Counted from the stretch's first letter, positions 50,041 through 63,532 are shown. The stretch: DNA of 64,000 nucleotides from Lachnospiraceae bacterium (GCA_022781985.1 JALESH010000030.1:3474-67473), one strand, 5' to 3'. Notes: generated by a model from the sequence alone, not told the origin. Made by a program: numbers and translations.

Positions 50041-51360
50041 ATGAATTTGGATTTGTTTGAAAAGCTGGTCAGTGGGGAGGAGAAGCTTTCCCTAGTAGGA
50101 CTGGGATATGTGGGGATGCCCATCGCAGTAGCCTTTGCAAAAAAAATCAAGGTGATCGGCTTTGACTTAAATGAAAAGAAGGTGGAGCTGTATCGCTCCG
50201 GGGTGGATCCTACCAATGAGGTGGGGGATGAGGTGATCCGAAATACATCCGTGGACTTTACCGCCGATGCCTCCAGATTAAAGGAGGCAAAATTCCATAT
50301 CGTGGCAGTGCCTACACCGGTGAATGAGGATCATACGCCGGATCTTTCCCCTCTGGAGGGCGCCAGCCGTCTGCTGGGACAGAACCTGACCAGGGGTTCT
50401 GTGGTGGTATATGAGTCCACTGTATATCCGGGGGTGACGGAGGATATCTGCGTGCCTATCCTGGAGCGGGAGTCGGGCCTGAGGTGCGGAGTGGACTTCC
50501 GTGTGGGCTATTCTCCCGAGAGGATCAATCCGGGGGATAGGGTGCACCGTCTGGAAACCATCGTGAAGATCGTATCAGGGATGGATGAGGAGACTCTGGA
50601 GACAGTGGCCAGGGTCTATGAGCTGGTAGTGGAGGCCGGCGTATACCGCGCGGAGTCCATCCGGGTGGCAGAGGCCGCAAAGGTGATCGAGAACAGCCAG
50701 AGAGATATCAATATCGCCTTTATGAATGAGCTGTCCATTATCTTCCATAAGATGGGGATCGATACCAAGGAGGTACTGGCAGCAGCCGGCACCAAGTGGA
50801 ACTTTTTGAATTTTGCCCCCGGACTGGTGGGCGGACACTGCATCGGTGTGGATCCCTACTATCTCACCTACAAGGCGGAACAGCTGGGTTATCACTCCCA
50901 GATCATTCTGTCCGGACGCCGGATCAATGACGATATGGGAAAATATGTGGCAGAGAGCCTGGTAAAGAACCTGATCAGGACCGGGGCCGCTGTAAGCGGG
51001 GCCAGGGTGGCCATCCTGGGCTTTACCTTCAAGGAAAACTGCCCGGACACAAGGAACACCAAGGTCATTGATATCTACCGGGAGCTGGGAGAATACGGCA
51101 TCACCCCCATGGTGGTGGATCCTGAGGCAGATGCGGAGGAGGCAGGGCAGCTGTACGGCATCACCTTCCAGAAGCTGGAGGATATCAGGGATATGGATGC
51201 GGTCATCATAGCCGTGGCTCACGCCAGCTTCCAGGAGCTGTCCCCGGAGAGGATTGCTTCCTTCTTCCATCCGGATCATAAGGTAAAGGTACTGATGGAT
51301 CTGAAGGGGCTGTTTGACAGAAAGGAATATCAGAAGGATTATTTATATTGGAGGCTGTGA
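50041..51360 (+). CDS. UDP-N-acetylhexosamine 6-dehydrogenase (TviB/WbpO/CapL-like nucleotide-sugar dehydrogenase)
   Basis: LVGLGYVGMP.A.AF NAD site, VPTPV, ESTVYPG.TE, GYSPERINPGD, AE.AKVIEN.QRD.NIA and GLVGGHCIGVDPYYL catalytic Cys. The start is at 50035 or 50041, after GGAAGGAGA. Confidence 0.85.
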   Translation: MNLDLFEKLVSGEEKLSLVGLGYVGMPIAVAFAKKIKVIGFDLNEKKVELYRSGVDPTNEVGDEVIRNTSVDFTADASRLKEAKFHIVAVPTPVNEDHTPDLSPLEGASRLLGQNLTRGSVVVYESTVYPGVTEDICVPILERESGLRCGVDFRVGYSPERINPGDRVHRLETIVKIVSGMDEETLETVARVYELVVEAGVYRAESIRVAEAAKVIENSQRDINIAFMNELSIIFHKMGIDTKEVLAAAGTKWNFLNFAPGLVGGHCIGVDPYYLTYKAEQLGYHSQIILSGRRINDDMGKYVAESLVKNLIRTGAAVSGARVAILGFTFKENCPDTRNTKVIDIYRELGEYGITPMVVDPEADAEEAGQLYGITFQKLEDIRDMDAVIIAVAHASFQELSPERIASFFHPDHKVKVLMDLKGLFDRKEYQKDYLYWRL

Positions 51361-52790
51361 TCAGAAAAAACCGGAAAGCTACAAAAAGGATAAAGGCAGT
51401 CAGGCCCTGGCTCCTGCCGGGACTGCTGCTGGCAGTGTTCTGGGGCATGTTTGCCGTCTATGGGCCGGGGATCTACAATGACTCGGACCAGTATATCAAG
51501 ATGCACATCCACAGGGAGCCTCTCTATCCCCTGTTTCTGGCCGCCCTGCGGGGCATATTCGGGGAGGGCTGGCTGACCGCCATGGGAATCCTCCAGAATG
51601 GACTTGCGGCAGTGAGCATATGGGTTTTTGCCCGATACATGGCCGGAAGGTTCAGATTGAACTGGCTGGAGGAGGGGATCCTGGCTCTGCTGGGGCTGAT
51701 GCCCCACATGATGACCATGTTTTTTTCCTCCCTCCATCTGTTCCTGACCAATTCGGTGATGAGCGAGGCTCTCTGCCTGCCTCTGTTTCTGCTGTTTATG
51801 ACGGCCTGCTTCGGGATGTGCCTGGAGGAGGAGAGGAAAAAGAGGAGAGAAATGACAGGCCTAGCCCTGGCGCTGGCCTTTCTGCTGTCCCTCACCCGCA
51901 GCCAGATGCTGCTGGCGGTGCTGCTGTGGACGGCAGTGCTGGGAGGCAGGATTCTGCTGGAAAAAAAAGAGAAGGGACAGGGGGCAGGGGCCAGGCTGCC
52001 TGCCCTGCTGGCGGCGCTCACGGCGGCCCTGCTGGTATTTGCCCTGCGAACCCTGTCGGTAAGAACCTATAATCTGGTTTTCAACGGCCGTTTTATCAAC
52101 AATACCTACGGAGCCGTAAATACCCTGACCAATATTCTCTATGCTGCAGACAGATTCCATGGAGAGAGGATCTCAGACCCGGAGGCCAGGGAGTTCTTTT
52201 ATCTTATGTATGACCTTACGGAGGAGAGGCAGGCCAATTATAAATATGCGGGGAAGGGATGGACCCGGAGGGCGGAGCATCTGGAGCAGTGGCATGACAC
52301 CATCAAATACGAGATGATCGAGGATGTTTTCTATCAGGCCTATGATAAGACGGTGACCACGGACTACATTGAGCAGAACCTGATGGCAGATGAAACAGCG
52401 GCAAGGATCATAGCAGGCATCCTTCCGGGCTGCTTTCTCCGGTGGCTGGGCAATTATCTGGCAGTGGCAGCCTATGGACTGATCCGAAGCATCGCAGTGG
52501 TGCATCCATTGCTCAACCAGGCGGCGGCCCTGATCTATCTTTCCGTGCCTCTGCTGGCCTGGCTGGTCCGCAGGCGGGGCGGAGAGAGAGGAATCATAGT
52601 GGTGATGGCCATAGCCCTGCTGGCTGTCCTGGCCAATGCAGCAGCAGTGTCTGTGACCATCATGTGTCTGTCCAGATATATGATCTATGGATTTACCACA
52701 TTCTACGCAGGGTATTTCCTGCTGCTGCGGGAAATAAGGAAGAGCTATTGGAGGAGAAGGGCTCCGTCTGAGAAAGGAGGGCGGTCATAG
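51348..52790 (+). CDS. polytopic membrane protein, GT-C-like / polymerase candidate
   Basis: 480 aa. An N-D-S-D motif (51477..51488) follows the first TM helix. It has about 9 TM helices and a roughly 110-aa soluble loop. The start codon is uncertain (TTG 51348 or GTG 51357, neither with good SD spacing). Confidence 0.5.
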   Translation: MEAVIRKNRKATKRIKAVRPWLLPGLLLAVFWGMFAVYGPGIYNDSDQYIKMHIHREPLYPLFLAALRGIFGEGWLTAMGILQNGLAAVSIWVFARYMAGRFRLNWLEEGILALLGLMPHMMTMFFSSLHLFLTNSVMSEALCLPLFLLFMTACFGMCLEEERKKRREMTGLALALAFLLSLTRSQMLLAVLLWTAVLGGRILLEKKEKGQGAGARLPALLAALTAALLVFALRTLSVRTYNLVFNGRFINNTYGAVNTLTNILYAADRFHGERISDPEAREFFYLMYDLTEERQANYKYAGKGWTRRAEHLEQWHDTIKYEMIEDVFYQAYDKTVTTDYIEQNLMADETAARIIAGILPGCFLRWLGNYLAVAAYGLIRSIAVVHPLLNQAAALIYLSVPLLAWLVRRRGGERGIIVVMAIALLAVLANAAAVSVTIMCLSRYMIYGFTTFYAGYFLLLREIRKSYWRRRAPSEKGGRS

Positions 52791-52791
52791 G

Positions 52792-53547
52792 ATGATAGAT
52801 CCGGTCAGCCACAGAGGCTATTATGAGTATGGAAAAGTCAATGCCCAAATGGGGATGGCTACTGAAAACGGAGAGAAATTTGCCCTGGGCCAGGAGGGCA
52901 TGGAGAAGGACCACAGTCAGAAAAAAGGAAAAAAGAAGGTGGGGGAGGCCGATGGAGTGGTGGTGGAGCTCTCCGGCCAATCCGGCGGGAAGCAGGGGAG
53001 GGGAGCAGATACCGGAGCAGAGCCGGGGGCCGCTGGTTTGGGAACGGATTTCACCCGGATCGGCTCCGGCCTGGGGGCGCTGGGCTCCGGCCTCCGGCTA
53101 TGGGGCGCAAGCCTGGCAAGGCTGGTCACCAATTTCTTTTCCGGCCTGAGAAAGGCAGTTTCCGATTTCTGGAACTCAGACAGCCCTGCCGCCCCGGCCG
53201 GGGCGGAGGAGATCGTAGAGGCAGAGATCGTGTCCGCCGAGGACAGGATGGGGGAGGAGGGAGCAGCGGATGAGGACGGCGTGGTAGCTGATGTGACAGA
53301 GGAGACCGTCATCTCCGATGAGGCTCCGCTCCTGCTGCTGCCCGCCTTGCCGGTTTCCAAAGGGACTGAGGGGGATCCCCCGGAGCAGATGCCGGAGTCT
53401 CCCGGCGATACAGGCCAGGTCAGGTATGTAAAAGACTCGGATCTTCTCACCCACTATGACAGGAGAGGCAAGCTGGTACGGCTGAACGGCGCAGACAGGG
53501 ATCGGATCCTCCATGGGGAAAGGAGCGCCAGAAGATACAGGCGGTGA
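52792..53547 (+). CDS. hypothetical protein, Gly/Ala/Glu-rich and probably largely disordered
   Basis: Good RBS (GAAAGGAGGG). The ATG lies 1 nt after the upstream stop. The composition is low-complexity and no family is recognised. Coding status rests on position and RBS only. Confidence 0.4.
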   Translation: MIDPVSHRGYYEYGKVNAQMGMATENGEKFALGQEGMEKDHSQKKGKKKVGEADGVVVELSGQSGGKQGRGADTGAEPGAAGLGTDFTRIGSGLGALGSGLRLWGASLARLVTNFFSGLRKAVSDFWNSDSPAAPAGAEEIVEAEIVSAEDRMGEEGAADEDGVVADVTEETVISDEAPLLLLPALPVSKGTEGDPPEQMPESPGDTGQVRYVKDSDLLTHYDRRGKLVRLNGADRDRILHGERSARRYRR

Positions 53548-53562
53548 GGGGCTTCTGCCTGA

Positions 53563-53637
53563 TTTTGGAAGTCTGTTTTGAAAGTCAAAAAAAGTTGAAA
53601 ATGGTTGTTTTTTATGATATCATTGTTGAAAATGGTT
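53563..53637 (+). repeat. two pairs of short direct repeats sharing a TTG[GA]AA core, in a promoter region
   Basis: TTTTGGAAGTC (53563..53573) and TTTTGAAAGTC (53576..53586) differ at one position. GTTGAAAATGGTT at 53594..53606 recurs exactly at 53625..53637, 31 bp apart. Confidence 0.85.
53595..53623 (+). promoter_or_regulatory. sigma-A-type promoter (TTGAAA-17-TGaTATCAT)
   Basis: -35 at 53595..53600 (inside the first 13-bp repeat), a 17-nt spacer, TG at 53615..53616 and -10 at 53618..53623. It lies 46 nt upstream of the STAS gene. Confidence 0.5.
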
Positions 53638-53668
53638 TTGTCAGCCTAAAAAGGAGGAAGCAATAGAT

Positions 53669-53965
53669 ATGACTATTGATAAGATTTTAAAAGGAAAGGA
53701 ACTCATACTGAATCTGGCAGGGCGACTGGATGCCACCACCGCTCCTGCGCTGGAAAGTGAGCTGAAGGCCTACATAGATGAGCTGGAGATGCTGACCATT
53801 GATTTCAAGGGTCTGGAGTATGTTTCATCTGCAGGACTGCGTGTGCTGCTCTTTGCCCAGAAGGTGATGAATAAGCAGGGCAAGATGGTGATCCGCAATG
53901 TAAATGAAACCATAAACGAGATTTTTGAGGTGACAGGCTTTATCGACATACTCACCATCGAATAA
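53669..53965 (+). CDS. STAS-domain anti-sigma-factor antagonist (SpoIIAA/RsbV-like)
   Basis: 98 aa. L.L.GRLD..TAP.LE.EL and DFKGLEYVSSAGLRVLL carry the conserved Ser pair (53825..53830). Strong AAGGAGGAAG RBS. Confidence 0.88.
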   Translation: MTIDKILKGKELILNLAGRLDATTAPALESELKAYIDELEMLTIDFKGLEYVSSAGLRVLLFAQKVMNKQGKMVIRNVNETINEIFEVTGFIDILTIE

Positions 53966-54014
53966 GGGATGAGTATTTTGCCAGACATACTAAGCTAATG
54001 GAGGAAGTCCCCAG

Positions 54015-57000
54015 ATGGACACAAGGAAAACGAATAGTATGAGGAAATTGAGTCAGTCCCAGACTGCTGTGATACAAAGTGAGCTGGCTTTTGCCGGCAA
54101 AGCGCAGAATGTGATCTCTGTCAGGCTGCGTCTCTGGGGGCTGGAGGCATCTGCGATAAAGGCTGCGGCAGAGCAGGTTTTTGCATCGGCGGACATTTTT
54201 ACGGCAGAGCTGATCCGGGAAAGGGAGGCCTTTTATTTCCATGTGGGCAGCAGGCAGGCAGCGGAGTGCAGTGTCCTGCCGGCCATGGAAGAGGAAGAGG
54301 CAAAAGCTTATATGGAGGAGGGGGACTGCCGGCCCCTGGGCTTTCCGGAGGAGCTCTGCAGGGCAGTGGTCATCCCCATAGAGGAAGGGGGCGCGGCGCT
54401 TTATGTCCGTTTCCATCATGTCATCATGGATGGATACGGGATGAGCCTGTTTGCCCAGAGGGTATTGGATGTCCTGTCAGGGAAAGAGGCAGAAAGATCG
54501 GTATTTTTTAAGGAAGAGAGCGGGGAGGCCCATGCAGACAGGGAGAGTGCTGAGGGCAAGGGCATCCGCACAGAGGACAGGGACTTTTGGGCAGGCTTTT
54601 TCCAGGATGCGGAATTCGAGCCTGCTATTTTTGCAGAGGTTCCCAGGAGTCTGAACCGGAGGGTCTTTGAGTACAGCCTGGACCGGACTGTCATGGCAGG
54701 CCTGGAGAGGACGGCGGCAGCCTGCGGGGTCAGCATACCCTATGTGCTGGCGGGAGCCTATGCTGTTTACCTGGCGGAGGCTACAGATAAGAAGGATGCA
54801 GTCTTCCTGATGCCCAGGCTGAACCGTCTGCCGGAGGAGAGGGACACCCTGGGCTGCTTTACCCTGCTGGTGCCTGTCCGTGTACATATTGAACAGGGAG
54901 ACAGCTTTGCCCGGATCTGCCGCAGGGTGCAGGAGGCTGCCCAGGAGGCATCGGCCCGGAAGCAGACGGGCTTCGGAGAGATCCTGAATATTCTTCGGGA
55001 TGAGAATGTGGCGGCGGATTCCCTGTCAGAGTATGTTTTTAATTTTTACCGTTTTCAAATCCATACGGATCTGACCTATCAATTAGATATTAGTGTGGCC
55101 GGAGCCATGCACAATCATCTCACATGGAGTATTTTCAGAAAGGAAGATAGCCTTTCCTTCCGGCTGGATATGAGGGACGGTGTCTATGATGAGGAAAGGG
55201 CGGGATTTTTTATAGACGGCATCCTGCAGATTCTGGAGAGGGCAGACCGGGAGACGGAGGTAGGCAGCCTGTCTGTGACAGGAAAAAAGGAAGAGGAAAA
55301 GCTCCTGGCTGTGAGAGGCAGGGAGATTGAAATAGACAGAACAGAGACCATTCCCTCCCTGTTCAGGAAGGCGGCAGCCCAATATAAGGATCGCCCGGCA
55401 CTGTATGCGGGAAAGGACAGCCTCACCTTCGGGGAGCTGGACAGGGTGTCAGACAGGATCGCTGCTGCCCTGATGGCAGAGGGCGTGGAGAGCGGCAGCA
55501 GGGTGGCTTTCATGCTGCCTAGGGACATCCGGCTGATCCCCACCATGCTGGGGATATTGAAGACGGGAGCTATCTTTATCCCGGTGGATCCGGGCTATCC
55601 CAGGGACAGGGTGCGTTATATCCTGGAGGACAGCGACGCGGCTGTTCTGATCTCATCAGGGAGCGTGGAGGAGGCTTCCGGGCATAGGTATCTGGAGGTG
55701 GATGACCTGCTGGGATTTCCCGGGACAGACAGCAGCTTCCCCCGGATCCTTCAGGACCAGCCTGCCTATATGATCTATACCTCGGGCACCACAGGACGGC
55801 CCAAAGGGGTGATCCTGTCCCATCGGGGCATCATCAACATCGTCCATCCTGAAAACAATCCCTTCAACAGAGATATCGTCAGGAACTGCAGGGGAATTAC
55901 AGCCATCGGCTCCATCTGCTTCGATATTTCTCTTTTTGAGATATTTGTGCCCCTGCTGAACGGGCTGTTTGTGGAGCTGGGCAATGAAAAATCCATGCTG
56001 GATGCAGGAGAGCTGGCAAAGCATATCCTGGCCCATAAGGCTGATATTCTGCACTGCACTCCCTCCAGGATCGTGTCCTATCTGGGGAACAGCGACTTTG
56101 TGGGTGCGCTGCAGACGGTAAAGGCTGTGCTTTCTGCAGGGGAGGTGCTTCCCCGGAGCCTGGTGGATGAGCTGAAGAATGACTACGGCATCCGTATTTA
56201 TAACGGATACGGACCTACAGAGACCACCATAGGAGCCACCATTACAGAGGACGGAGATGAGAAAACCATCGGCAGGCCCATCGCCAATATGGGGGTTCTC
56301 CTGCTGAACCGGAACAGAAAGATAGTGCCCTATGGGGCGGCCGGGGAAATCTGCATCTATGGACTGGGGGTTGGCCTGGGCTACCGGAACCGCCCGGAGG
56401 AAACCGCAGAGAAGTTTACAGAGTACCAGGGCCGGCTTATTTACCGTACCGGTGATATCGGCCACTTTGCAGAGGACGGCAGCCTGATCTACCATGGCAG
56501 AAACGACAGGCAGATCAAGCTGCGGGGGCTGAGGATCGAGCTCTCGGAGATCGAGAAGGTGATCGGCTCCTTTAAGGGGATTTCCCAGGTGCACTGTATG
56601 ATCCGTACCATCGACAGGATGGAGCATCTGGCCGCGTTCTATACGGCGGAGACTGGGAAAAAGATAGAGCAGGAGAAGCTGCTGGAGCACATGAGAAGGC
56701 AGCTTACCTCCTATATGGTGCCGGATATCTTGAAGGAGCTGGAATCCATGCCCCAGACGCCCGGCGGCAAGACCGACCTGAAGGCCTTGAAGCAGATACC
56801 CATAGAGTACAGCCGCCAGTACAGGGCGCCGAAGAACAGGCTGGAAAAGCAGATCTGCCTGGCATTTTCCTCTGTGCTGGATAAGGAAAAGGTGGGGGCA
56901 GACGATAATTTCTTTGAAATGGGAGGGGATTCCCTGTCCGTCCCTGCGCTGCTCATGGAGATAGAGGACAGATTGGAGACAGAGGGACAGGAGCTGCTGG

Positions 57001-58253
57001 AGTTCGGTGATATTTTCAAGTATCCCACCCCTGCCCTGATCGCGGAGAAGATCGCCGGAAAGGTGAGGGAGGAGCCCCAGTACAGGATCGATGGGCTGGA
57101 TTACAGCGGTATCGATGAGTACCTCTCCGTGCCGGAGGGCAGGGAGGCAGTGAAAAGGAACCTGGGCAATATCCTGCTCACAGGCGTGACGGGCTATCTG
57201 GGCATCCATATCCTCATCGACCTGCTGGGCAGGCCGGAAAGCTTTGGGAAGGTGTTCTGTCTGGCCAGGGGCAACGCCAAGCTGTCCGCATCAAGACGGG
57301 TCAGAGGCACCCTGTTCTATTATGCAGAGGAGGATTTTACGGAGAGCTACGGCAGTAAGTGGGAGGTGGTGGAAGGGGATATCACAGATCCCAGGATCTT
57401 CAGGGAGGAATTTAATGAAAAGATCGACACCATCATCAATTCCGCAGCCAATGTGGCCCATTTTGCATACGGAGACGCCCTGGAGCAGGTAAATACCAGA
57501 GGGGTGGAAAATCTGATCGAATATGCGGTAGCCCAGGGGGCTGAGCTGTGCCAGGTGTCCACCATCAGCGTGGGCGGTGTATACCGGGCGGGAGAGGAGC
57601 ATGGGAGCCTGACGGAACAGAATCTGTACATCGGCCAGGAGATCCACAATCAGTATATTTATTCCAAGTATCTGGCGGAATATGCCATGCTTCGGGCAGG
57701 TGTGGACCGGGGGCTTTCCATCAAGCTCATGCGGGTGGGGAACCTGCAGGGCAGAAGCCGGGACGGGGAGTTCCAGATGAATATGAAGACCAATGCCTTT
57801 ACCCGCAGGCTGGCAGCCTATATCAGGATGGGAGCTATCCCCAGGTCGGTTTATGATTCCAGCGTGAATTTTTCTCCGGTGGATGAAACGGCGCATATGA
57901 TCGTATCCCTTGCCATGCTGGAGGGGGTACATACGGCTTTTCATGTGTACCCGCCGGAGGAGGCTGCGTTTAACAATCTGGTGGCAGCCCTTGAAAAGAT
58001 CGGACACAGGATCAGGCTGGTTTCGGATGAGGAGTTCGGCGCCATGCTGAGAGCTATGAAAAAATCCCGGGAAGGGGCCGATTCTGTGGAGGGGCTGCTG
58101 ACAGATATCAATCCCGGAGAGTACTGGGATATCCCCATTCTCCAGAGCTGGACCAACCATATGCTGGAGCTGCTGGGTGAGTGCTGGCAGCCCCTCACGG
58201 AAGAGTATCTGAACCGCTATCTGCTGGCCCTGGATGGGATGGATATGTTTTAA
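54015..58253 (+). CDS. single-module nonribosomal peptide synthetase, domain order C-A-T-R (terminal thioester reductase)
   Basis: C domain: HHVIMDG at 54414..54434. A domain: YTSGTTGRPKG at 55776..55808, plus NGYGPTETT, GEICIYG.GVGLGY, YRTGD and PGGKTD. T domain: FFEMGGDSLS with GGDSLS at 56922..56939. R domain: TGVTGYLG at 57180..57203 and Y-I-Y-S-K. Confidence 0.9.
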   Translation: MDTRKTNSMRKLSQSQTAVIQSELAFAGKAQNVISVRLRLWGLEASAIKAAAEQVFASADIFTAELIREREAFYFHVGSRQAAECSVLPAMEEEEAKAYMEEGDCRPLGFPEELCRAVVIPIEEGGAALYVRFHHVIMDGYGMSLFAQRVLDVLSGKEAERSVFFKEESGEAHADRESAEGKGIRTEDRDFWAGFFQDAEFEPAIFAEVPRSLNRRVFEYSLDRTVMAGLERTAAACGVSIPYVLAGAYAVYLAEATDKKDAVFLMPRLNRLPEERDTLGCFTLLVPVRVHIEQGDSFARICRRVQEAAQEASARKQTGFGEILNILRDENVAADSLSEYVFNFYRFQIHTDLTYQLDISVAGAMHNHLTWSIFRKEDSLSFRLDMRDGVYDEERAGFFIDGILQILERADRETEVGSLSVTGKKEEEKLLAVRGREIEIDRTETIPSLFRKAAAQYKDRPALYAGKDSLTFGELDRVSDRIAAALMAEGVESGSRVAFMLPRDIRLIPTMLGILKTGAIFIPVDPGYPRDRVRYILEDSDAAVLISSGSVEEASGHRYLEVDDLLGFPGTDSSFPRILQDQPAYMIYTSGTTGRPKGVILSHRGIINIVHPENNPFNRDIVRNCRGITAIGSICFDISLFEIFVPLLNGLFVELGNEKSMLDAGELAKHILAHKADILHCTPSRIVSYLGNSDFVGALQTVKAVLSAGEVLPRSLVDELKNDYGIRIYNGYGPTETTIGATITEDGDEKTIGRPIANMGVLLLNRNRKIVPYGAAGEICIYGLGVGLGYRNRPEETAEKFTEYQGRLIYRTGDIGHFAEDGSLIYHGRNDRQIKLRGLRIELSEIEKVIGSFKGISQVHCMIRTIDRMEHLAAFYTAETGKKIEQEKLLEHMRRQLTSYMVPDILKELESMPQTPGGKTDLKALKQIPIEYSRQYRAPKNRLEKQICLAFSSVLDKEKVGADDNFFEMGGDSLSVPALLMEIEDRLETEGQELLEFGDIFKYPTPALIAEKIAGKVREEPQYRIDGLDYSGIDEYLSVPEGREAVKRNLGNILLTGVTGYLGIHILIDLLGRPESFGKVFCLARGNAKLSASRRVRGTLFYYAEEDFTESYGSKWEVVEGDITDPRIFREEFNEKIDTIINSAANVAHFAYGDALEQVNTRGVENLIEYAVAQGAELCQVSTISVGGVYRAGEEHGSLTEQNLYIGQEIHNQYIYSKYLAEYAMLRAGVDRGLSIKLMRVGNLQGRSRDGEFQMNMKTNAFTRRLAAYIRMGAIPRSVYDSSVNFSPVDETAHMIVSLAMLEGVHTAFHVYPPEEAAFNNLVAALEKIGHRIRLVSDEEFGAMLRAMKKSREGADSVEGLLTDINPGEYWDIPILQSWTNHMLELLGECWQPLTEEYLNRYLLALDGMDMF

Positions 58254-58282
58254 AATACATAAGAAAGGATTAAATAAATTAT

Positions 58283-59722
58283 ATGATTATAGTTGCATTA
58301 TGGGGCTTTGCAGTTTTTCTGGCATCAGTCTTTGCAGTTCTGCTCAGCGCCGCCACCTTGGAGTCAAAGCATAAGCTGAGAACCAGGGTGATGGTCTGGC
58401 TGGCGGCAGGTCTGGTGGGCTACGGCATTTCCTTCATTTCTTACATGGTCAATCTTTATAATGACACAGTAGGGATACTCGGATTGTCTGTTGTTGTATG
58501 TATCATTGTGGATTGGCTGTATGAGGGAACTCGCTCCGCTAAGCTTTTCGTGGCTCTTGTTTCCTGTTTGATTGCCAACGTGACCACCTTTATGTTTTGC
58601 GGAACCACAGATACTCTGCTGGCGGGCAGGCTGGGGCTGATGAAGGAAAGTCCCTATGAGGTATCCAACATCCTGTTTTTCATTGGCATAAAGATCGTAG
58701 TATATACGTTCTTTTATATATTATATATTAAATTTTTACGAGGAAAAATCTGTGAAATGATCCAGTCACTGTCCGGGAAGATGTCCCATTATGTGGCGGC
58801 TCCCCTGATTTCCGTAATAGGCTTTTATATTATTAACCTGTTCACTAATCAGAATGGGATTTTTCCCAATCATTACTGGTTCTTTCCGCTCTACCTGACC
58901 ATATGTGTAATCTTCGTGGTAGAATTTGTACTGCTTATCAATTCTGTTATGCAGACGGCTACAGCCATGAAGAATGAGGCAGAGCTGAATGTGGCCACCA
59001 ATATTCAGCAGTCTATGCTGCCCTGTATCTTTCCTGCATTTCCGGAAAGGAAGGAATTTGACATTTATGCCTCCATGGCTCCTGCCAAGGAGGTGGGCGG
59101 TGACTTCTATGATTTCTTTATGGTGGATGAAAGGCATCTGGCCATCGTAATGGCTGATGTGTCGGGAAAGGGCGTCCCCGCCGCCTTGTTTATGGTCATC
59201 GGCAAGACACTGCTCAAGGATCATACACAGCCCGGAAGGGATCTGGGAGAGGTATTTGGCGAGGTCAACAATCTGCTGTGCGAAGCCAACAGCGAAGGGC
59301 TTTTTATTACCGTATTTGAGGGTGTGCTGGATCTGGTGACAGGGGAGTTTGTCTTTGTCAATGCGGGCCATGAGCCGCCGTACATCTGCAAGAAGGGCGG
59401 AGAGTTCGAACTGCATCAGATCCGCGCAGGCTTTGTATTGGCCGGCATGGAGGATACTCGCTACCGCGCAGGCTGCATTACCTTGGAGGAAGGGGATAAG
59501 CTGTTCCAGTATACCGACGGTGTGACGGAGGCTACCAGTGCCCAGAATGAGCTGTACGGCAAAGACAGGCTGCAGAAGGTGCTGGCTGCCAACAGCAGCA
59601 AGGCGCCTGCAGAGATACTGCCGGCTGTAAAGGCCGATATTGACCTGTTTGTGGGCTCAGCCCCTCAGTTTGATGACATCACAATGCTTTGTCTGGAGTA
59701 TAAGGTCAGGATGCAGACGTAA
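58283..59722 (+). CDS. SpoIIE/PP2C-family serine phosphatase with polytopic N-terminal membrane (sensor) domain (RsbU/SpoIIE-like)
   Basis: The N-terminal roughly 230 aa form about 7 hydrophobic helices. They are followed by A.NIQQSMLP, EVGGDFYDFF, MADVSGKGVPAALFM, YTDGVTEA and QFDDIT PPM motifs. Confidence 0.88.
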   Translation: MIIVALWGFAVFLASVFAVLLSAATLESKHKLRTRVMVWLAAGLVGYGISFISYMVNLYNDTVGILGLSVVVCIIVDWLYEGTRSAKLFVALVSCLIANVTTFMFCGTTDTLLAGRLGLMKESPYEVSNILFFIGIKIVVYTFFYILYIKFLRGKICEMIQSLSGKMSHYVAAPLISVIGFYIINLFTNQNGIFPNHYWFFPLYLTICVIFVVEFVLLINSVMQTATAMKNEAELNVATNIQQSMLPCIFPAFPERKEFDIYASMAPAKEVGGDFYDFFMVDERHLAIVMADVSGKGVPAALFMVIGKTLLKDHTQPGRDLGEVFGEVNNLLCEANSEGLFITVFEGVLDLVTGEFVFVNAGHEPPYICKKGGEFELHQIRAGFVLAGMEDTRYRAGCITLEEGDKLFQYTDGVTEATSAQNELYGKDRLQKVLAANSSKAPAEILPAVKADIDLFVGSAPQFDDITMLCLEYKVRMQT

Positions 59723-59737
59723 TAAGGAGGATGGAAG

Positions 59738-60145
59738 ATGAATGAATTGACGATTGATGCAACCGTTAACAATATTGAAGCTGTAACATCCTTTGTAGAA
59801 GAGAAGCTGGCGCCGTTCCATCTTCCGGTAAAGAGCCAGAGGCAGATCAATGTGGCTATAGACGAGCTGTTCGGGAATATCGCGTTATATGCCTACAATC
59901 CTGATAAAGGTATGGCAGTGGTCCGGGTGGAGTTCGGTGACGATCCACCGTCGGTGACCATTACCTTTATCGACAGGGGGACGCCCTATGATCCGCTGGC
60001 AAGGCCGGATCCTGATGTGACGCTTTCTGCAGAGCAGAGGAAGATCGGAGGGCTGGGCATCTACATGGTGAAAAAAAGCATGGATGATGTCTCATACGAA
60101 TACCGGGATGGGCAGAACATCCTGCGCATCACAAAAAACATATAG
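59738..60145 (+). CDS. anti-sigma-factor-type serine kinase (SpoIIAB/RsbW-like HATPase_c)
   Basis: 135 aa. N-box-like DELFGNIA.YAY, D.G.PYDP, and a G-box GGLGIYMVKKSMD. It starts 15 nt after the phosphatase gene. Confidence 0.85.
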   Translation: MNELTIDATVNNIEAVTSFVEEKLAPFHLPVKSQRQINVAIDELFGNIALYAYNPDKGMAVVRVEFGDDPPSVTITFIDRGTPYDPLARPDPDVTLSAEQRKIGGLGIYMVKKSMDDVSYEYRDGQNILRITKNI

Positions 60146-60160
60146 ACCAAATCAGGAAAA

Positions 60161-60204
60161 TAAGGCTGGAATAGCTGGCGAACAGAGCTACTCCGGCCTT
60201 TTGT
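60161..60204 (+). terminator. rho-independent terminator
   Basis: A 15-bp stem pairs AAGGCTGGAATAGCT (60161..60175) with AGCTACTCCGGCCTT (60185..60199), with one mismatch and one G-U pair. It is followed by TTTTG. Confidence 0.6.
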
Positions 60205-60241
60205 AGAACAAAAGAATGGATGGGTGCAGGGGAAAATATCT

Positions 60242-60814
60242 ATGCAGATGATAATCCGGAAGGGGTTAATAGAGCTTATATATAAGGATTTGCAAGAAAA
60301 GAAGATTATTTACCTGAGCGCTCCCTGCGGCTGGGGAAAGACTGTGCTTTTGCAGCAGATTGCAGATTTTCTCAGGAGCAGGAGAGAGGAGTGTGTGTTC
60401 CTGCATACACAGGAGGAAGTGGGGCAGGGCCTGGTTTCGGCTACCCATCCAAAGGGTGAGACAGAGAAGGAGGCCCAAATCTTTCTGGTAGATAATCTGG
60501 AAGAGTGGCTGATGTCAGGCAGGATGGAAGCGCTGATGAACCATATTCATATCGGGAGAAAGGAAAATAAGTTTATATTGGGAGGCAGGATCCCGCTGCC
60601 GGTCCAGCTGGTTCCCTATAAGATCTGTTCCCAGATCTCAATCTACGGCAGGGATAAATTGAAATATTCCCGGGAGGAGTTGGATCAGATGTGCGATGGA
60701 CTGAGCCGGGGGAACAGCAGGGAGCAGCTCCGGAGCATGTACGAGGTATGCGGGGGAATGCCCCTGCTGCTGGCTGTAGCCGGGGATCTGCTGGAGGAAG
60801 AAGGCTATGCTTGA
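60242..60814 (+). CDS. P-loop NTPase module of a LAL/MalT-type regulator (separate ORF)
   Basis: Walker A APCGWGKT (60320..60343) and Walker-B-like IFLVDNLEEW. The ORF ends in TGA overlapping the ATG of the next ORF (ATGCTTGA). ATG at 60242 follows AGGGGA; the track starts at GTG 60224. Confidence 0.6.
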   Translation: MQMIIRKGLIELIYKDLQEKKIIYLSAPCGWGKTVLLQQIADFLRSRREECVFLHTQEEVGQGLVSATHPKGETEKEAQIFLVDNLEEWLMSGRMEALMNHIHIGRKENKFILGGRIPLPVQLVPYKICSQISIYGRDKLKYSREELDQMCDGLSRGNSREQLRSMYEVCGGMPLLLAVAGDLLEEEGYA

Positions 60815-62651
60815 TTACAGGATACTTGGAAAATGCTATGAGGAATGCTTCCGGTACTATGAGGCTGTCTGCTTTAAGGCTTATCCCGGTGAGTACCAGA
60901 CCATCCTGCTGAAAACAGCTTTTTTCCCTGGTATAAATCAGGAGCTGCTGATGCAGGTGTTTGACTGCAGCGAGACGGACAGCAAGAGGATATTAGGCGA
61001 TCTGTGTGAGGTGTATGGGGCACTCATCCCTCAGTCAGAGGGGGAGTATGTCCTGGAAGAATTTCTGAGGATGTTTCTGCAGAAGCGCCAGACCGTCTAT
61101 CTGAATGTGGGGGAGATGGACAGGGTATATAAAAAAGCATACGAATACTATGTATCAGGGGCCAAGTGGAAGGAAGCGGTGAGATATGCCCACTTAAGCG
61201 GTGATATACAGGGAGTGGTGAGATGCCTGCATGAGGCATTGACAGAAAATGAGCTGGAAGGCTGCTGGCAGGATCTGCAGCCTTACCTGGAGAGTGTGCC
61301 GGAGCCCTATGTCACCGGTGATCCTGTCCTCCTCTATGCTTATGCCATGCTGGAAGCACTGTATGGCAATAAAAAGGAGTCTGAGCGTTATGCGGGGATT
61401 TTGGAACGGCGCAGGAGGGAAACACCGGAGGATTCTGAGGAATTTGCTTTACTGCAGTCTGCCTGTGAGTTCCTGCAGGCACATCTGCCCTACCGGGAGC
61501 CGGAGGAGCTGTTCCTTTGGCTGGAGCATACGGATGGCTGCCGGAAATATCCATGGCATAGGATCAGCCTGAGCAGCGGGCAGCCCAGCTTTCTCCATGG
61601 AGACAGAGACTTCAGCATATATATGGGCGGCAGGGAGGCTCTGGAAAAAGCGGCAGAAGGGCTGAAGGCCCTTATGCAGGATGACTGTGACGGCATCCAG
61701 GAGGTGATCCTGGGGGAGGTCGCCTATGAAAAGGGTGACCTGGATGAGGCGGTGACGCTGCTGGCAAAGGGGATCAGCAGCGCCTCAGGCAAGAATGAGG
61801 AGACAGTATATGTAGCAAGCATGCTGCTGGCTAAGATCATGTACGTAAGGAACCAGCCGGAGCAGGCCCGGAATGTGGTAAGGGGAATGGAGCGCAGGCT
61901 GGCAGGAAGTGACAGCCTGTATGCCAGAGCCAATCTGGAGGCCTTTCAGATCTATATCCGTATGCTGCAGGGGGAAAGCCGGGCGGCAGCGGATTGGGCC
62001 CGGTACAGTGCCCCTCAGGAGCAGGATGTGTTCATTACCCTGGACAGCTACTGCTATATGGTAAAGATCTATGCTTATATCATGATGGACCATACAGAAA
62101 CTGCCCTGCTGATCCTGTACCGGATCCTGTCATATGCCAGGGAATATCACAGGAAGTACGACGAGCTGCACATGCGTCTGCTTGAAATCATCATCCTGTA
62201 TGGAAAAAAGGGAAGGAAATGGGTGACCATGCTGGGGGAGCTACTGGAGGAAACCCAGCAGTATGGCATGGTGCGTCTGTATGCGGACCGGGGGGCTCTG
62301 CTGTACCCTGTATTAAAAAGCTATGAGGAGTACAGAAAAACGGAAGATACAGGCAGAACCATAGACCCCGGCTATTATAAAAAGATAAGGGAACAGACCG
62401 GGAATTTAGCCCTGGTTTACCCCGGCTTCAGTACGCAGAAAAAGGAATATGAGGAGCTGAACCGGCACGAGCAGGATGTACTCAGGCTGCTCTGTGGAGG
62501 GCTGAAAAATGCAGAGATTGCAGACCGTCTGTTTGTGACGGAAAACACGGTGAAATATCATCTTAAAAAGATATATCAGAAGCTGCAGGTGGGCAGCCGC
62601 AATGAAGCGGTCGCTAGGGCCATGGAACTGGAAATGAAAGGGCAGGAGTGA
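60807..62651 (+). CDS. LuxR-family transcriptional regulator, helical/TPR-like sensor region + C-terminal HTH (MalT/LAL-type, lacking its own NTPase)
   Basis: The C-terminal L..HEQDVLRLLCGGLKNAEIADRLFVTENTVKYHLKKIYQKLQV.SRNEAV.RA is a classic LuxR/FixJ HTH. The upstream roughly 540 aa are alpha-helical repeat-like. Confidence 0.8.
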   Translation: MLDYRILGKCYEECFRYYEAVCFKAYPGEYQTILLKTAFFPGINQELLMQVFDCSETDSKRILGDLCEVYGALIPQSEGEYVLEEFLRMFLQKRQTVYLNVGEMDRVYKKAYEYYVSGAKWKEAVRYAHLSGDIQGVVRCLHEALTENELEGCWQDLQPYLESVPEPYVTGDPVLLYAYAMLEALYGNKKESERYAGILERRRRETPEDSEEFALLQSACEFLQAHLPYREPEELFLWLEHTDGCRKYPWHRISLSSGQPSFLHGDRDFSIYMGGREALEKAAEGLKALMQDDCDGIQEVILGEVAYEKGDLDEAVTLLAKGISSASGKNEETVYVASMLLAKIMYVRNQPEQARNVVRGMERRLAGSDSLYARANLEAFQIYIRMLQGESRAAADWARYSAPQEQDVFITLDSYCYMVKIYAYIMMDHTETALLILYRILSYAREYHRKYDELHMRLLEIIILYGKKGRKWVTMLGELLEETQQYGMVRLYADRGALLYPVLKSYEEYRKTEDTGRTIDPGYYKKIREQTGNLALVYPGFSTQKKEYEELNRHEQDVLRLLCGGLKNAEIADRLFVTENTVKYHLKKIYQKLQVGSRNEAVARAMELEMKGQE

Positions 62652-62662
62652 CGGAGGAAGAT

Positions 62663-63532
62663 ATGGCGGAGTATGACAGCCGGGATAGGAAACAGAAGAC
62701 AAGGGAGGAGAGCAGAAAAAGGCTGAAGGAGACAGTCTGGCGTCTGACGGCGCCCGTACATGTGACCTTAAATTCTTATAAGGAGCACGAGAGGATCGAG
62801 GGCTACTATGAATTTAAGGACTACAGGCATGTTTTTCAGTGCGACAGGCTGCTGAAGCTGGAAACTGTGTACGGAAGGGTGCAGATGGGCTACAATCCCA
62901 ATCGCAGGAGAAGCTTTCTCTTTGCCAATATGAAGACCAATCTCTACGATACGGTCAGCTTTGGCTATCAGAAGAGCATGAAGGAATATCAGCGGCGGCC
63001 GGAGCAGAAGCGGGGAGGCAAAAATATGGCCTATGTGTCAGGCCGGAAAAAAAATGCTGCAGTTCTGCTGGAGAAAACAGAGAGCAGGCCCTGGTCTGAA
63101 GGTGCGCTAAGACCCTATTTCCACAATGCCAATCTGGAGGTCATACTGAAGACGATGCCCTTTTTCCATGCGGAGGCGGAGCGGGAACAGCTGCAGCAGG
63201 TCCGGGAAAGGATGCGCCTGCTGCAGGAGCAGGTCCGGGATAATGCCCGGAAGGGGGAATATGAAAGAAACAGGGGTCTGCAGCAGAGGCTCCGTGAGCT
63301 GGGAGAGGAGTCGGAGCTTCTGCAGTCCATATTGCGCAGGAAGGATGCAGGAAGAAGGGGTTTTATCCGAAAAATCAACTATGCCTTTGATATAGAGAAG
63401 CACCAGATGTTCCAATATTACAGAGAGCAGAGGCTGAAGTCATCCCGGGAACAGATATCCGCCATCGATCAGCAGGCGGATGAGGAGGGTAATTCTTCGG
63501 AGAATAAGGAGCAGAGCGATCAGAATGAATAA
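62663..63532 (+). CDS. hypothetical protein (charged, coiled-coil-rich C-terminal half)
   Basis: ATG at 62663 follows GGAGG; the track's GTG at 62648 overlaps the upstream stop. No family recognised. The sequence is Lys/Arg/Glu-rich, with heptad-like runs (REQLQQVRERMRLLQEQVRD). Confidence 0.5.
   Translation: MAEYDSRDRKQKTREESRKRLKETVWRLTAPVHVTLNSYKEHERIEGYYEFKDYRHVFQCDRLLKLETVYGRVQMGYNPNRRRSFLFANMKTNLYDTVSFGYQKSMKEYQRRPEQKRGGKNMAYVSGRKKNAAVLLEKTESRPWSEGALRPYFHNANLEVILKTMPFFHAEAEREQLQQVRERMRLLQEQVRDNARKGEYERNRGLQQRLRELGEESELLQSILRRKDAGRRGFIRKINYAFDIEKHQMFQYYREQRLKSSREQISAIDQQADEEGNSSENKEQSDQNE

Follow-up and report, generated by a model that had tools for sequence, protein, structure and literature searches.

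Within the window, the whole 64,000-nt stretch of Lachnospiraceae DNA that was analysed, an NRPS gene lies second in a row of four genes, all on the + strand, in the order STAS-domain protein, NRPS, seven-helix membrane PP2C phosphatase and RsbW-like kinase (Table 1). The genes are separated by 49, 29 and 15 bp, and each is preceded by a ribosome-binding site, with AGGAGG ahead of the STAS and kinase starts and GGAGGA ahead of the NRPS start codon. The one good promoter-like site lies upstream of the STAS gene, 46 bp 5' of its start, and was the best-scoring site in 53300..62800; no convincing internal terminator was found within the four-gene operon. The original prediction called the NRPS stand-alone and did not mention these neighbours. 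The NRPS gene is one of four in a conserved STAS/PP2C/kinase operon, a context that alters what the NRPS finding is about.

Table 1 Features of the four-gene operon, with positions counted from the first nucleotide of the window
Feature	Position	Strand	Evidence
Sigma-70-like promoter candidate	53595..53623	+	TTGAAA-17-TATCAT with TG, 10/12 consensus matches; consensus match only
STAS-domain protein, anti-sigma-antagonist type, 98 aa	53669..53965	+	PF01740 E 6.8e-16; TIGR00377 70.8 bits, cut-off 53
Single-module NRPS, C-A-T-R, 1412 aa	54015..58253	+	Open ORF, motifs and Pfam domains: Condensation 36-430, AMP-binding 450-790, AMP-binding_C 845-919, PP-binding 947-1011, NAD_binding_4 1055-1296
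Condensation (C) domain, residues 36-430	54120..55304	+	PF00668 E 6.6e-33; HHVIMDG at 54414..54434
Adenylation (A) domain, residues 450-919	55362..56771	+	PF00501 E 1.1e-72; TIGR01733 339 bits, cut-off 317
Carrier (T) domain, residues 947-1011	56853..57047	+	PF00550 E 3.1e-07; Ser973 in GGDSLS at 56922..56939
Terminal thioester reductase (R) domain	57168..58250	+	PF07993 E 6.3e-34; TGVTGYLG, STISV, YIYSK
Membrane PP2C phosphatase, 479 aa	58283..59722	+	PF07228 E 4.2e-45; SpoIIE/RsbU-type catalytic domain
RsbW/SpoIIAB-type serine kinase, 135 aa	59738..60145	+	PF13581 E 2.4e-22

Judged from its sequence, the ORF is under purifying selection and encodes an NRPS whose single module is catalytically intact. 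Pfam recovered every domain of the C-A-T-R architecture that had been proposed for it, and all motifs were located at the predicted sites. The intact HHxxxDG motif reads HHVIMDG (residues 134-140) and occupies exactly the nucleotides expected, the carrier Ser lies in GGDSLS (residues 970-975), and the SDR-type terminal reductase was recognised from its PF07993 match together with TGVTGYLG (1056-1063), STISV and YIYSK (1214-1218), which supply a Rossmann motif and the Ser/Thr-Tyr-Lys triad. We collected 120 full-length orthologues at 49-66% identity. Among them, the carrier Ser was kept in the six commonest motif variants, the R-domain motifs were preserved throughout, and HHxxxDG was kept with one exception, which reads NHIIIDG; H134, H135, D139 and G140 were invariant in a 12-sequence alignment.

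The core motifs A3-A10 of the A domain read YTSGTTGRPKG, FDISLFE, NGYGPTE, YRTGD, GRNDRQIKLRG and PGGKTD. FDISLFE (residues 636-642) keeps its Asp as predicted, and the retention of Asp235 and Lys517 points to an alpha-amino acid substrate. Of the specificity code proposed originally, the unusual character stood and one residue did not: anchoring on the core motifs places a His at position 278, where Ser had been proposed, giving DIFHLAGIGK. This code was identical in 111 of the 120 orthologues, the remaining nine having DIYHLAGIGK with a single F-to-Y change, and the mean identity of the A domain among orthologues was 64%. The A domain is predicted to activate one fixed alpha-amino acid. Because the residues at the pocket bottom of DIFHLAGIGK are small, the substrate is probably large and either hydrophobic or aromatic. 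The amino acid would be loaded on the carrier domain, itself primed by the single Sfp-type PPTase of the genome (contig C54, G000:C54:69992-70675). A second module, an acyl-AMP ligase, a PPTase and an MbtH gene had all been reported absent from the window, which is true of the window and largely true of the genome: outside the NRPS, the genome contains one Condensation match and one AMP-binding match, both on contig C23 and unlinked to the operon, and no MbtH gene was detected in it.

The R domain is divergent, scoring 144.7 bits with TIGR01746 (thioester reductase), under the cut-off of 213, yet R domains of NRPSs with solved structures align with it along its whole length. In the PDB it matched 6VTJ with an E value of 2e-56, the alignment spanning residues 28-391 of a 392-residue query, and its second-best solved relative was the aldehyde-releasing R domain of the aureusimine synthetase AusA (4F6C, E 6e-38), although AusA, with the order A-T-C-A-T-R, is dimodular. 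Driven by NAD(P)H, the R domain here would free an N-acyl alpha-amino aldehyde, possibly reduced on to the alcohol. Mainly on the basis of architecture, the best guess for the product is still an N-acyl amino aldehyde.

The C domain is the least conserved domain of the NRPS, with a mean identity of 44% among orthologues and no more than 20-25% identity to the C domains found in related NRPSs. It begins at about residue 10 of the protein, with no carrier domain or module upstream. This N-terminal position agrees with the starter label given to it originally, for which PDB matches provided weak backing. CDA-C1 came top (2e-13) and RzmA-Cs third in a single-sequence search, both being lipoinitiation C domains. 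When the family profile was used, RzmA-Cs scored 75 bits, the elongation C domain of LgrA 71, BacC 66, TycB 64 and CDA-C1 61, elongation C domains scoring nearly level with starter ones. The C domain resembles the starter type only weakly. Gene clustering of 22 orthologue loci revealed no conserved donor A or T gene near the NRPS. Since the gene is not accompanied by a donor module or carrier, we infer that the C domain would acylate the amino group using acyl-CoA or acyl-ACP of primary metabolism; the N-acyl part of the predicted product is argued for by the position of the C domain and the absence of a conserved donor module.

Alternatively, the C domain might take its acyl group from a dedicated carrier rather than from CoA or FAS-ACP, in which case the product would stay an N-acyl amino aldehyde with a specific acyl chain. 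MxcG- and NpsB/TomB-type C-A-T-R enzymes use carrier-bound donors, and the myxochelin enzyme MxcG, whose aryl donor is delivered by a dedicated carrier protein, has the same domain order as the NRPS here and aligns collinearly with it at 403 bits, the scores with the AusA and MxcG models being far under their equivalog cut-offs (2500 and 2300 bits). The genome offers one candidate donor, a FadD-like ligase on contig C23 which is its only other adenylate-forming enzyme and adjoins a free-standing carrier of 83 aa. However, no dedicated donor carrier travels with the NRPS here, unlike in MxcG, and the C23 trio already has its own C domain. Moreover, among 301 genera, 38 have the trio and 36 of these lack the cassette, and one genome (G054) has the cassette but no C23 trio, making supply by such a carrier very unlikely.

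Reductase-terminated NRPSs of gut Clostridia were reportedly described by Guo et al. 2017 (Cell 168:517), and ruminopeptin is said to have been treated by Schneider et al. 2018. The kinship to this group suggested in the original prediction was borne out: the nearest non-orthologues come from gut anaerobes and are R-terminated NRPSs with two or three modules. They form a separate group, and along the entire terminal C-A-T-R module their identity to the NRPS here is 30-34%. The NRPS here is similar to them in its gut-anaerobe host, its terminal R domain and, presumably, its aldehyde product. In contrast, it forms a separate clade with its own code, DIFHLAGIGK (F-to-Y in 9 of 120), and a very divergent C domain. 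The gut Clostridia enzymes produce di- or tripeptide aldehydes or pyrazinones (PMC8210680, PMC12327764). Unlike the dipeptide-aldehyde family, with its two or more modules, a single module can make neither a dipeptide nor a pyrazinone. Many of the di- and tri-modular NRPSs of this type likewise carry STAS, PP2C and kinase genes, but their sensor is a two-helix PP2C-kinase fusion, whereas the one here is a seven-helix PP2C.

The three partners of the NRPS belong to the same families as RsbV-RsbW-RsbU and SpoIIAA-SpoIIAB-SpoIIE of Bacillus, with catalytic and phospho-acceptor motifs intact. In the STAS protein, the phospho-acceptor Ser54 (the second Ser of VSSAGL) lies at the start of helix 2, presumably aligns with Ser58 of SpoIIAA, and was invariant in all seven NRPS-linked STAS proteins aligned. 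The kinase has an N box DELFGN, a G1 box DRGTPYD and a G2 box GGLGI, and the phosphatase retains GGDFYD, ADVSGKG, TDG and FDDIT. Residues 1-245 of the phosphatase form about seven transmembrane helices according to hydropathy and an AlphaFold model (mean pLDDT 79.5). This membrane half had no Pfam or NCBIfam match, and it is highly conserved, with many invariant polar residues within the helices. Foldseek matched the model to the RsbU/RsbW protein Rv1364c, RssB, SiaA and SpoIIE, always on the catalytic half.

The NRPS clade was found in 3 of the 301 Lachnospiraceae genera sampled, and those orthologues that have a named source come from Lachnospiraceae or from other MAGs and isolates of the gut and rumen. 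In species-representative genomes, the PP2C gene lies directly downstream of the NRPS in all 18 close orthologues; the kinase is present in 17 of these 18 loci, either as a separate protein or as part of a PP2C fusion, and a STAS gene lies within 7 kb in 12 of them. The gene order is shuffled among these loci, some of which have PP2C-kinase fusions. When 22 loci were clustered by gene content, only the NRPS (22/22), the PP2C/kinase (21/22) and the STAS protein (13/22) were broadly shared; G054 encodes a kinase and a STAS protein that are unlinked to its NRPS. Switch parts also flank about half of the distant R-terminated NRPSs with several modules, which are 30-32% identical and occur in Bacteroidales, Spirochaetes, Synergistetes and other Clostridia, and the flanking DNA examined for the other half contained no switch genes. 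These distant cassettes carry fused or differently built sensors, including a PP2C with two helices around a presumably external loop of about 170 residues, and in some relatives a MatE-kinase-like fusion that has lost the G2 box.

This comparison bears on the neighbourhood of the operon in the window, where 121 bp separate its start from the final ORF of a large locus for polysaccharide (36-53 kb), whose products include an ATP-grasp ligase and a TviB-like dehydrogenase. Such proximity could mean that the NRPS acts in decorating the cell-surface glycan of this upstream locus, for example with an amino-aldehyde or amino-alcohol substituent. Yet the 21 other loci of close orthologues all lack these glycan genes beside the cassette, and their flanks instead encode ABC transporters, sugar uptake, ribosomal proteins and others; we regard a role in glycan decoration as extremely improbable.

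The linkage of the NRPS to a PP2C, a kinase and a STAS protein suggests protein-level gating of compound synthesis. Modules of the RsbV/RsbW/RsbU type classically act on sigma factors, and the genome has 12 sigma-70-family genes, so the PP2C, kinase and STAS protein could govern an alternative sigma factor encoded elsewhere, which would direct transcription of the operon and other genes, with the NRPS as co-transcribed cargo. This is decidedly unlikely. No sigma-70-family gene was found in the operon, in any of the 22 close-orthologue loci or linked to the distant cassettes, which occur also in Bacteroidales and Spirochaetes MAGs, and the one SigF-type module of the genome, the sporulation spoIIAA-AB-sigF operon apart on contig C76, owns a separate STAS protein and kinase. 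In addition, the PP2C-kinase fusions and the G2-less MatE-kinase-like fusions point to protein targets other than sigma factors. Unlike the partner-switching modules of Bacillus, no sigma factor is encoded alongside, and the conserved fourth gene encodes a biosynthetic enzyme.

STAS outputs other than sigma factors have precedent in SypA-SypE of Vibrio fischeri (PMC8256260), and the kinase-phosphatase fusion of some relatives is also seen in SypE and Rv1364c. The closest working analogue of the STAS/NRPS/PP2C/kinase operon is SiaABCD of Pseudomonas aeruginosa, in which the unphosphorylated switch protein directly binds and activates an enzyme without a sigma factor (PMC7647112). Sia, like the operon here, encodes a PP2C of the membrane together with a kinase, an enzyme and a STAS-like protein that can be phosphorylated. 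The PP2C domain of SiaA (6K4E) was one of the top structural matches for the phosphatase model (TM 0.82, normalised to the target), and the NCBIfam SiaA model matches it at 2.1e-10, although the two PP2C domains share only 22-23% identity. The Sia enzyme is a diguanylate cyclase, whereas the NRPS fills the enzyme slot here, and SiaC, unlike the STAS protein of this operon, has only a distant resemblance to STAS proteins and carries its phosphate on Thr.

We propose that the operon works like SiaABCD. The membrane PP2C would respond to a cue from the membrane or from outside, which might be the lipophilic NRPS product itself, and together with the kinase would set the phosphorylation state of STAS Ser54; the STAS protein or the kinase would then bind a non-sigma target, most likely the NRPS. 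In relatives with the MatE-kinase-like fusion, the target may be an exporter. An N-acyl amino aldehyde synthetase whose production or release is gated in this SiaABCD-like manner is a reading to which we give an about even chance.

The direction of control could run from the switch to the NRPS, from the NRPS product to the switch, or both ways. Pyrazines and pyrazinones formed from amino aldehydes are known bacterial signals, and in an autoinducer-like circuit the NRPS product would be the input of the switch rather than its target: the membrane domain of the PP2C would sense an aldehyde that is secreted or membrane-active, or else a pyrazine derived from this aldehyde, and the STAS protein would relay the signal to targets elsewhere in the cell. 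The invariant polar residues in the seven-helix sensor fit a ligand site, the distant cassettes swap in two helices with the large, presumably external loop, and no gene is linked to the NRPS more tightly than the PP2C. However, a compact cassette spread across phyla without a conserved output gene poorly fits unlinked, host-specific targets, and an N-acylated single-module product would be unable to cyclise to a pyrazinone. We consider a purely signalling role unlikely, if less so than control of a sigma factor. Under the SiaABCD-like gating that we propose, whether the target is the NRPS or an exporter, the production or release of a reactive aldehyde would be gated at the protein level.

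The plus-strand ORF is open throughout and encodes 1412 residues, in which condensation (C), adenylation (A), carrier (T) and thioester reductase (R) domains follow one another in the order originally predicted. The motifs named in that prediction were also found in place, namely HHVIMDG, FDISLFE, GGDSLS, TGVTGYLG and YIYSK. The A domain exceeded the cut-off of the NCBIfam amino-acid adenylation model (339 vs 317 bits). The R domain was supported by its Pfam match and by near-full-length alignment to two solved NRPS reductases, that of AusA (6e-38) and 6VTJ (E 2e-56), a PCP-R didomain from an archaeal NRPS, but it stayed below the cut-off of the NCBIfam thioester-reductase model (144.7 vs 213 bits), indicating that it is divergent. 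Its closeness to AusA slightly favours a two-electron reduction. With 436 bits, LgrA at first seemed a particularly close relative of the A domain, but this score is an artefact, being the sum of two ~217-bit matches to both LgrA A domains.

Among 5.8 billion proteins searched, more than 120 full-length relatives (~1400 aa, 49-66% identity) were recovered, the named ones being from Lachnospiraceae; with one genome taken per genus, a close orthologue was present in only 3 of 301 Lachnospiraceae genera. The orthologues have kept HHxxxDG, the carrier Ser, the Rossmann motif, ST and YxxxK, and their mean identities are 44% (C), 64% (A), 47% (T) and 58% (R). Some orthologues are ~110 aa longer and were considered as STAS-NRPS fusions, but the surplus consists of C-domain insertions, and no part of a STAS, kinase or PP2C protein is present in them. 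When the ten Stachelhaus positions were anchored via core motifs, the specificity code read D-I-F-H-L-A-G-I-G-K. The original, tentative prediction, D-I-F-S-L-A-G-I-G-K, was right at nine positions and wrong at position 278, which is His rather than Ser. In 111 of 120 orthologues the code is the same, and the other nine carry a single F-to-Y change. Constancy of both motifs and code reflects purifying selection for catalysis and for one single substrate. The first five residues coincide with those of the hydroxyphenylglycine code DIFHLGLLCK. At the pocket bottom, the four residues A, G, I and G are smaller than their counterparts in that code, suggesting that the pocket is deeper and takes a large side chain, hydrophobic or aromatic. 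The window's genome (2.44 Mb in 89 contigs, ~91% complete) encodes a single Sfp-type PPTase, on contig C54, and no MbtH was found in it. Besides the NRPS it has only one C domain and one adenylate-forming enzyme, both on contig C23.

We infer N-acylation by the C domain mainly from the architecture, because this domain is N-terminal, keeps its catalytic motif and has no donor module or carrier conserved nearby. Whether it belongs to the starter type, as had been proposed, was examined in three ways. A single-sequence search gave CDA-C1 (2e-13), bacitracin synthase 3, RzmA-Cs and VibH as the best solved relatives. A 12-sequence family profile placed RzmA-Cs first (75 bits), but the elongation C domain of LgrA scored nearly the same (71 bits), followed by BacC, TycB and CDA-C1 at 61-66 bits. 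Identity to C domains from related multi-module Lachnospiraceae NRPSs was 20-25% irrespective of position, with no preference for first-position over internal domains. We therefore only lean towards a starter-like C domain. The C domain and the adenylate-forming enzyme on C23 belong to a trio comprising a stand-alone C protein (a 483-aa open frame with DHLILDA replacing HHxxxDG), an 83-aa carrier protein and a FadD-like AMP ligase, adjoined by an alpha/beta hydrolase and an SCP2-like ORF. This trio was rejected as an obligate partner of the NRPS, since it is absent from G054, a genome carrying a close NRPS orthologue, and its co-occurrence with the cassette in 2 of 3 genomes is too weak against a background of 38 of 301. 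The C protein of this type occurs in those 38 Lachnospiraceae genera, in many at 55-76% identity, independently of the NRPS cassette.

The NRPS had been described as a stand-alone gene, but it is flanked by genes for a STAS protein and a SpoIIE/PP2C phosphatase, the latter followed by an RsbW-type kinase. The intergenic gaps are 49, 29 and 15 bp, a Shine-Dalgarno sequence precedes every gene (a weaker one, AAAGGA, at PP2C), and the one good promoter-like site lies immediately 5' of the STAS gene. These features point to a single operon. The original observation stands and the original interpretation is supported in part, with one code residue corrected; left unmentioned was the most interesting property of the enzyme, a hard-wired phospho-switch. 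The switch motifs are intact, including the phospho-acceptor Ser of STAS, the N, G1 and G2 boxes of the kinase and the metal-binding motifs of PP2C. Residues 1-245 of PP2C form ~seven predicted transmembrane helices with many invariant polar residues, and this half matched no Pfam or NCBIfam family. The best 50 structural matches to the PP2C model were all PP2C-family phosphatases, led by Rv1364c RsbU-RsbW, RssB, SiaA and SpoIIE, and among the matches listed only the catalytic half was covered.

Features of the NRPS locus and of related loci (positions without a locus or contig prefix are those of the window; residues are those of the NRPS)
Feature	Location	Strand	Remarks
NRPS	54015..58253	+	C-A-T-R
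Condensation	residues 36-430		Pfam, E 6.6e-33
AMP-binding	residues 450-790		Pfam, E 1.1e-72
AMP-binding_C	residues 845-919		Pfam
PP-binding	residues 947-1011		Pfam, E 3.1e-07
NAD_binding_4	residues 1055-1296		Pfam, E 6.3e-34
HHVIMDG motif	54414..54434		
STAS protein	53669..53965		flanks NRPS
SpoIIE/PP2C phosphatase	58283..59722		flanks NRPS
RsbW-type kinase	59738..60145		follows PP2C
P-loop ORF and 614-aa ORF	60224-62651		after kinase
ORF of upstream glycan locus	51348-52790		480 aa
ORF of upstream glycan locus	52792-53547		251 aa
Stand-alone C protein, 83-aa carrier, FadD-like ligase	G000:C23:17949-21229	-	on contig C23 of the window's genome
Cyclic-nucleotide-binding protein	L061:13200-13679		also at five other close-orthologue loci
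PP2C-HATPase_c_2 fusions	L082:11344-13443, L083:10932-12989, L086:10911-12899, L094:4069-6099		~25 more loci; after di-/tri-modular NRPSs, before STAS
MatE-HATPase_c_2 (RsbW-like) C-terminal fusions	L043:12181-13914, L048:1-1657, L050:2807-4552, L062:3011-4831, L057:2910-4664		beside R-terminated NRPSs
Free RsbW-like kinase	L047:10076-10540		genome G168

The linkage between the NRPS and this complete sigma-less switch is strong. STAS, PP2C and kinase genes adjoin the NRPS in all three orthologues at 50-59% identity on unrelated contigs, where gene order is shuffled, one PP2C-kinase fusion occurs and the remaining flanks are wholly different; in G054, the kinase and STAS genes lie on contigs other than that of the NRPS. 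A scan of species-representative genomes, with switch genes called by HMMs, yielded 18 loci with close orthologues. PP2C is directly downstream of the NRPS in all 18, the kinase is present in 17 (the exception being a 3.3-kb contig) and STAS lies within 7 kb in 12. Clustering of all ORFs from 22 loci found no further broadly conserved gene beside the NRPS and the switch; less common neighbours were a MatE exporter (8 loci), a small cNMP-binding protein (6) and a PPTase (4). In the two longest examples examined, the exporter carries a fused kinase-like domain. The sole weak HMM match to such a fusion in the window's genome, on contig C36, is an ordinary histidine kinase. The cNMP-binding protein (~160 aa) consists of a cyclic-nucleotide-binding domain only, is 65-68% identical between loci and is encoded within a few kb 3' of the cassette, in locus L061 immediately behind the kinase; it may be an accessory switch input in one sub-clade. 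In the window, the kinase is followed after 78 bp by a 196-aa P-loop ORF overlapping a 614-aa ORF with MalT-type TPR repeats and a LuxR HTH, the two together looking like the halves of a split LAL/MalT regulator; at other loci, no such pair was found beside the cassette. The genes of the upstream polysaccharide locus are conserved at none of the other loci and hence lie outside the system. Neither of its last two ORFs matches Pfam, and the 480-aa one has a sole weak NCBIfam match, WsfD-like (1.5e-4).

More distant relatives, at 30-34% identity, are R-terminated NRPSs with two or three modules, 2000-3000 aa long and variable in code; they are hosted by Lachnospiraceae, other Clostridia, and MAGs of Bacteroidales, Sphaerochaetaceae and Synergistaceae. 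At about half of these loci, the NRPS is directly followed by a PP2C-HATPase_c_2 fusion of 660-710 aa, in which two transmembrane helices flank a ~170-residue loop, and then by STAS. A STAS/kinase pair 5.5 kb from the NRPS in locus L041 is spoIIA-operon-like and was left out of the counts. Other loci carry MatE-kinase-like fusions. In the three aligned (L043, L048 and L050), the kinase-like domain keeps the N and G1 boxes but has lost the G2 'GGLG' ATP-lid box, and consequently it may bind STAS without phosphorylating it. In locus L047, a free kinase encoded beside a tri-modular NRPS of 2991 aa shares 69% identity with the window's kinase, against only ~31% between the two NRPSs. Either constraint is far stronger on the switch genes than on the synthetases, or switch genes have been swapped between clusters. 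On this comparative evidence, the sigma-less STAS/kinase/PP2C switch is a recurrent companion of gut R-terminated NRPSs, with a constant core and a variable sensor. Evidently, one and the same cassette has passed from phylum to phylum. The clade of the window represents the single-module version of the system, with a seven-helix sensor.

It is possible that, as in the canonical reading, an unlinked sigma factor is the target of the switch, and 12 sigma-70-family genes are present in the genome; we favour the NRPS, or the exporter where the MatE-kinase-like fusion exists, because the cassette crosses phyla as a compact unit and no other gene is conserved with it. The best-documented analogue for such gating at the protein level is SiaABCD, where a membrane PP2C, a kinase and a STAS-like protein control a co-encoded diguanylate cyclase through direct binding (PMC7647112). 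Both systems encode the switch with an enzyme, but the enzyme here is an NRPS rather than a diguanylate cyclase. SypE/SypA and BtrUVW are further switches with outputs other than established sigma factors (PMC8256260). In our proposal, the C domain would N-acylate the residue with an acyl group taken from a CoA or ACP thioester, the R domain would free the product as an aldehyde, and the product might feed back onto the membrane sensor. The relation may possibly run in the opposite direction, with the product being the signal and the outputs lying elsewhere. Our boldest reading is that the switch directly turns NRPS catalysis on and off, that the hitherto undescribed seven-helix sensor reads the lipophilic product as self-protection feedback against a reactive aldehyde, or else a gut cue, and that the product represents a new class of one-residue N-acyl amino aldehydes; we advance this reading tentatively and consider it less likely than not.

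R-terminated NRPSs of gut anaerobes yield peptide aldehydes which inhibit host and bacterial proteases, and we know of no mechanism by which the producers control such reactive compounds. The present NRPS is a new, single-module form of this known kind. A full-text search found no paper tying an NRPS to a partner-switching module, in a body of literature outside which lie the primary gut peptide-aldehyde papers, whose cluster figures may depict these genes without remarking on them. Direct gating, if true, would make this switch the first known protein-level regulator of an NRPS and would offer a handle to switch on gut NRPS clusters whose native products are hard to obtain; for example, isolation of ruminopeptin from culture was unsuccessful (PMC12327764). 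No form of the system is simpler than this locus, which has four genes, a single module and a single fixed amino acid; it is a tractable model whose chemistry involves just one substrate, one acylation step and one reduction step. It is thus suited to asking whether STAS, kinase and PP2C directly control a megaenzyme or exporter, as SiaABC does a diguanylate cyclase, and since the linkage extends across phyla, the answer obtained here would probably hold for many gene clusters from gut and rumen.
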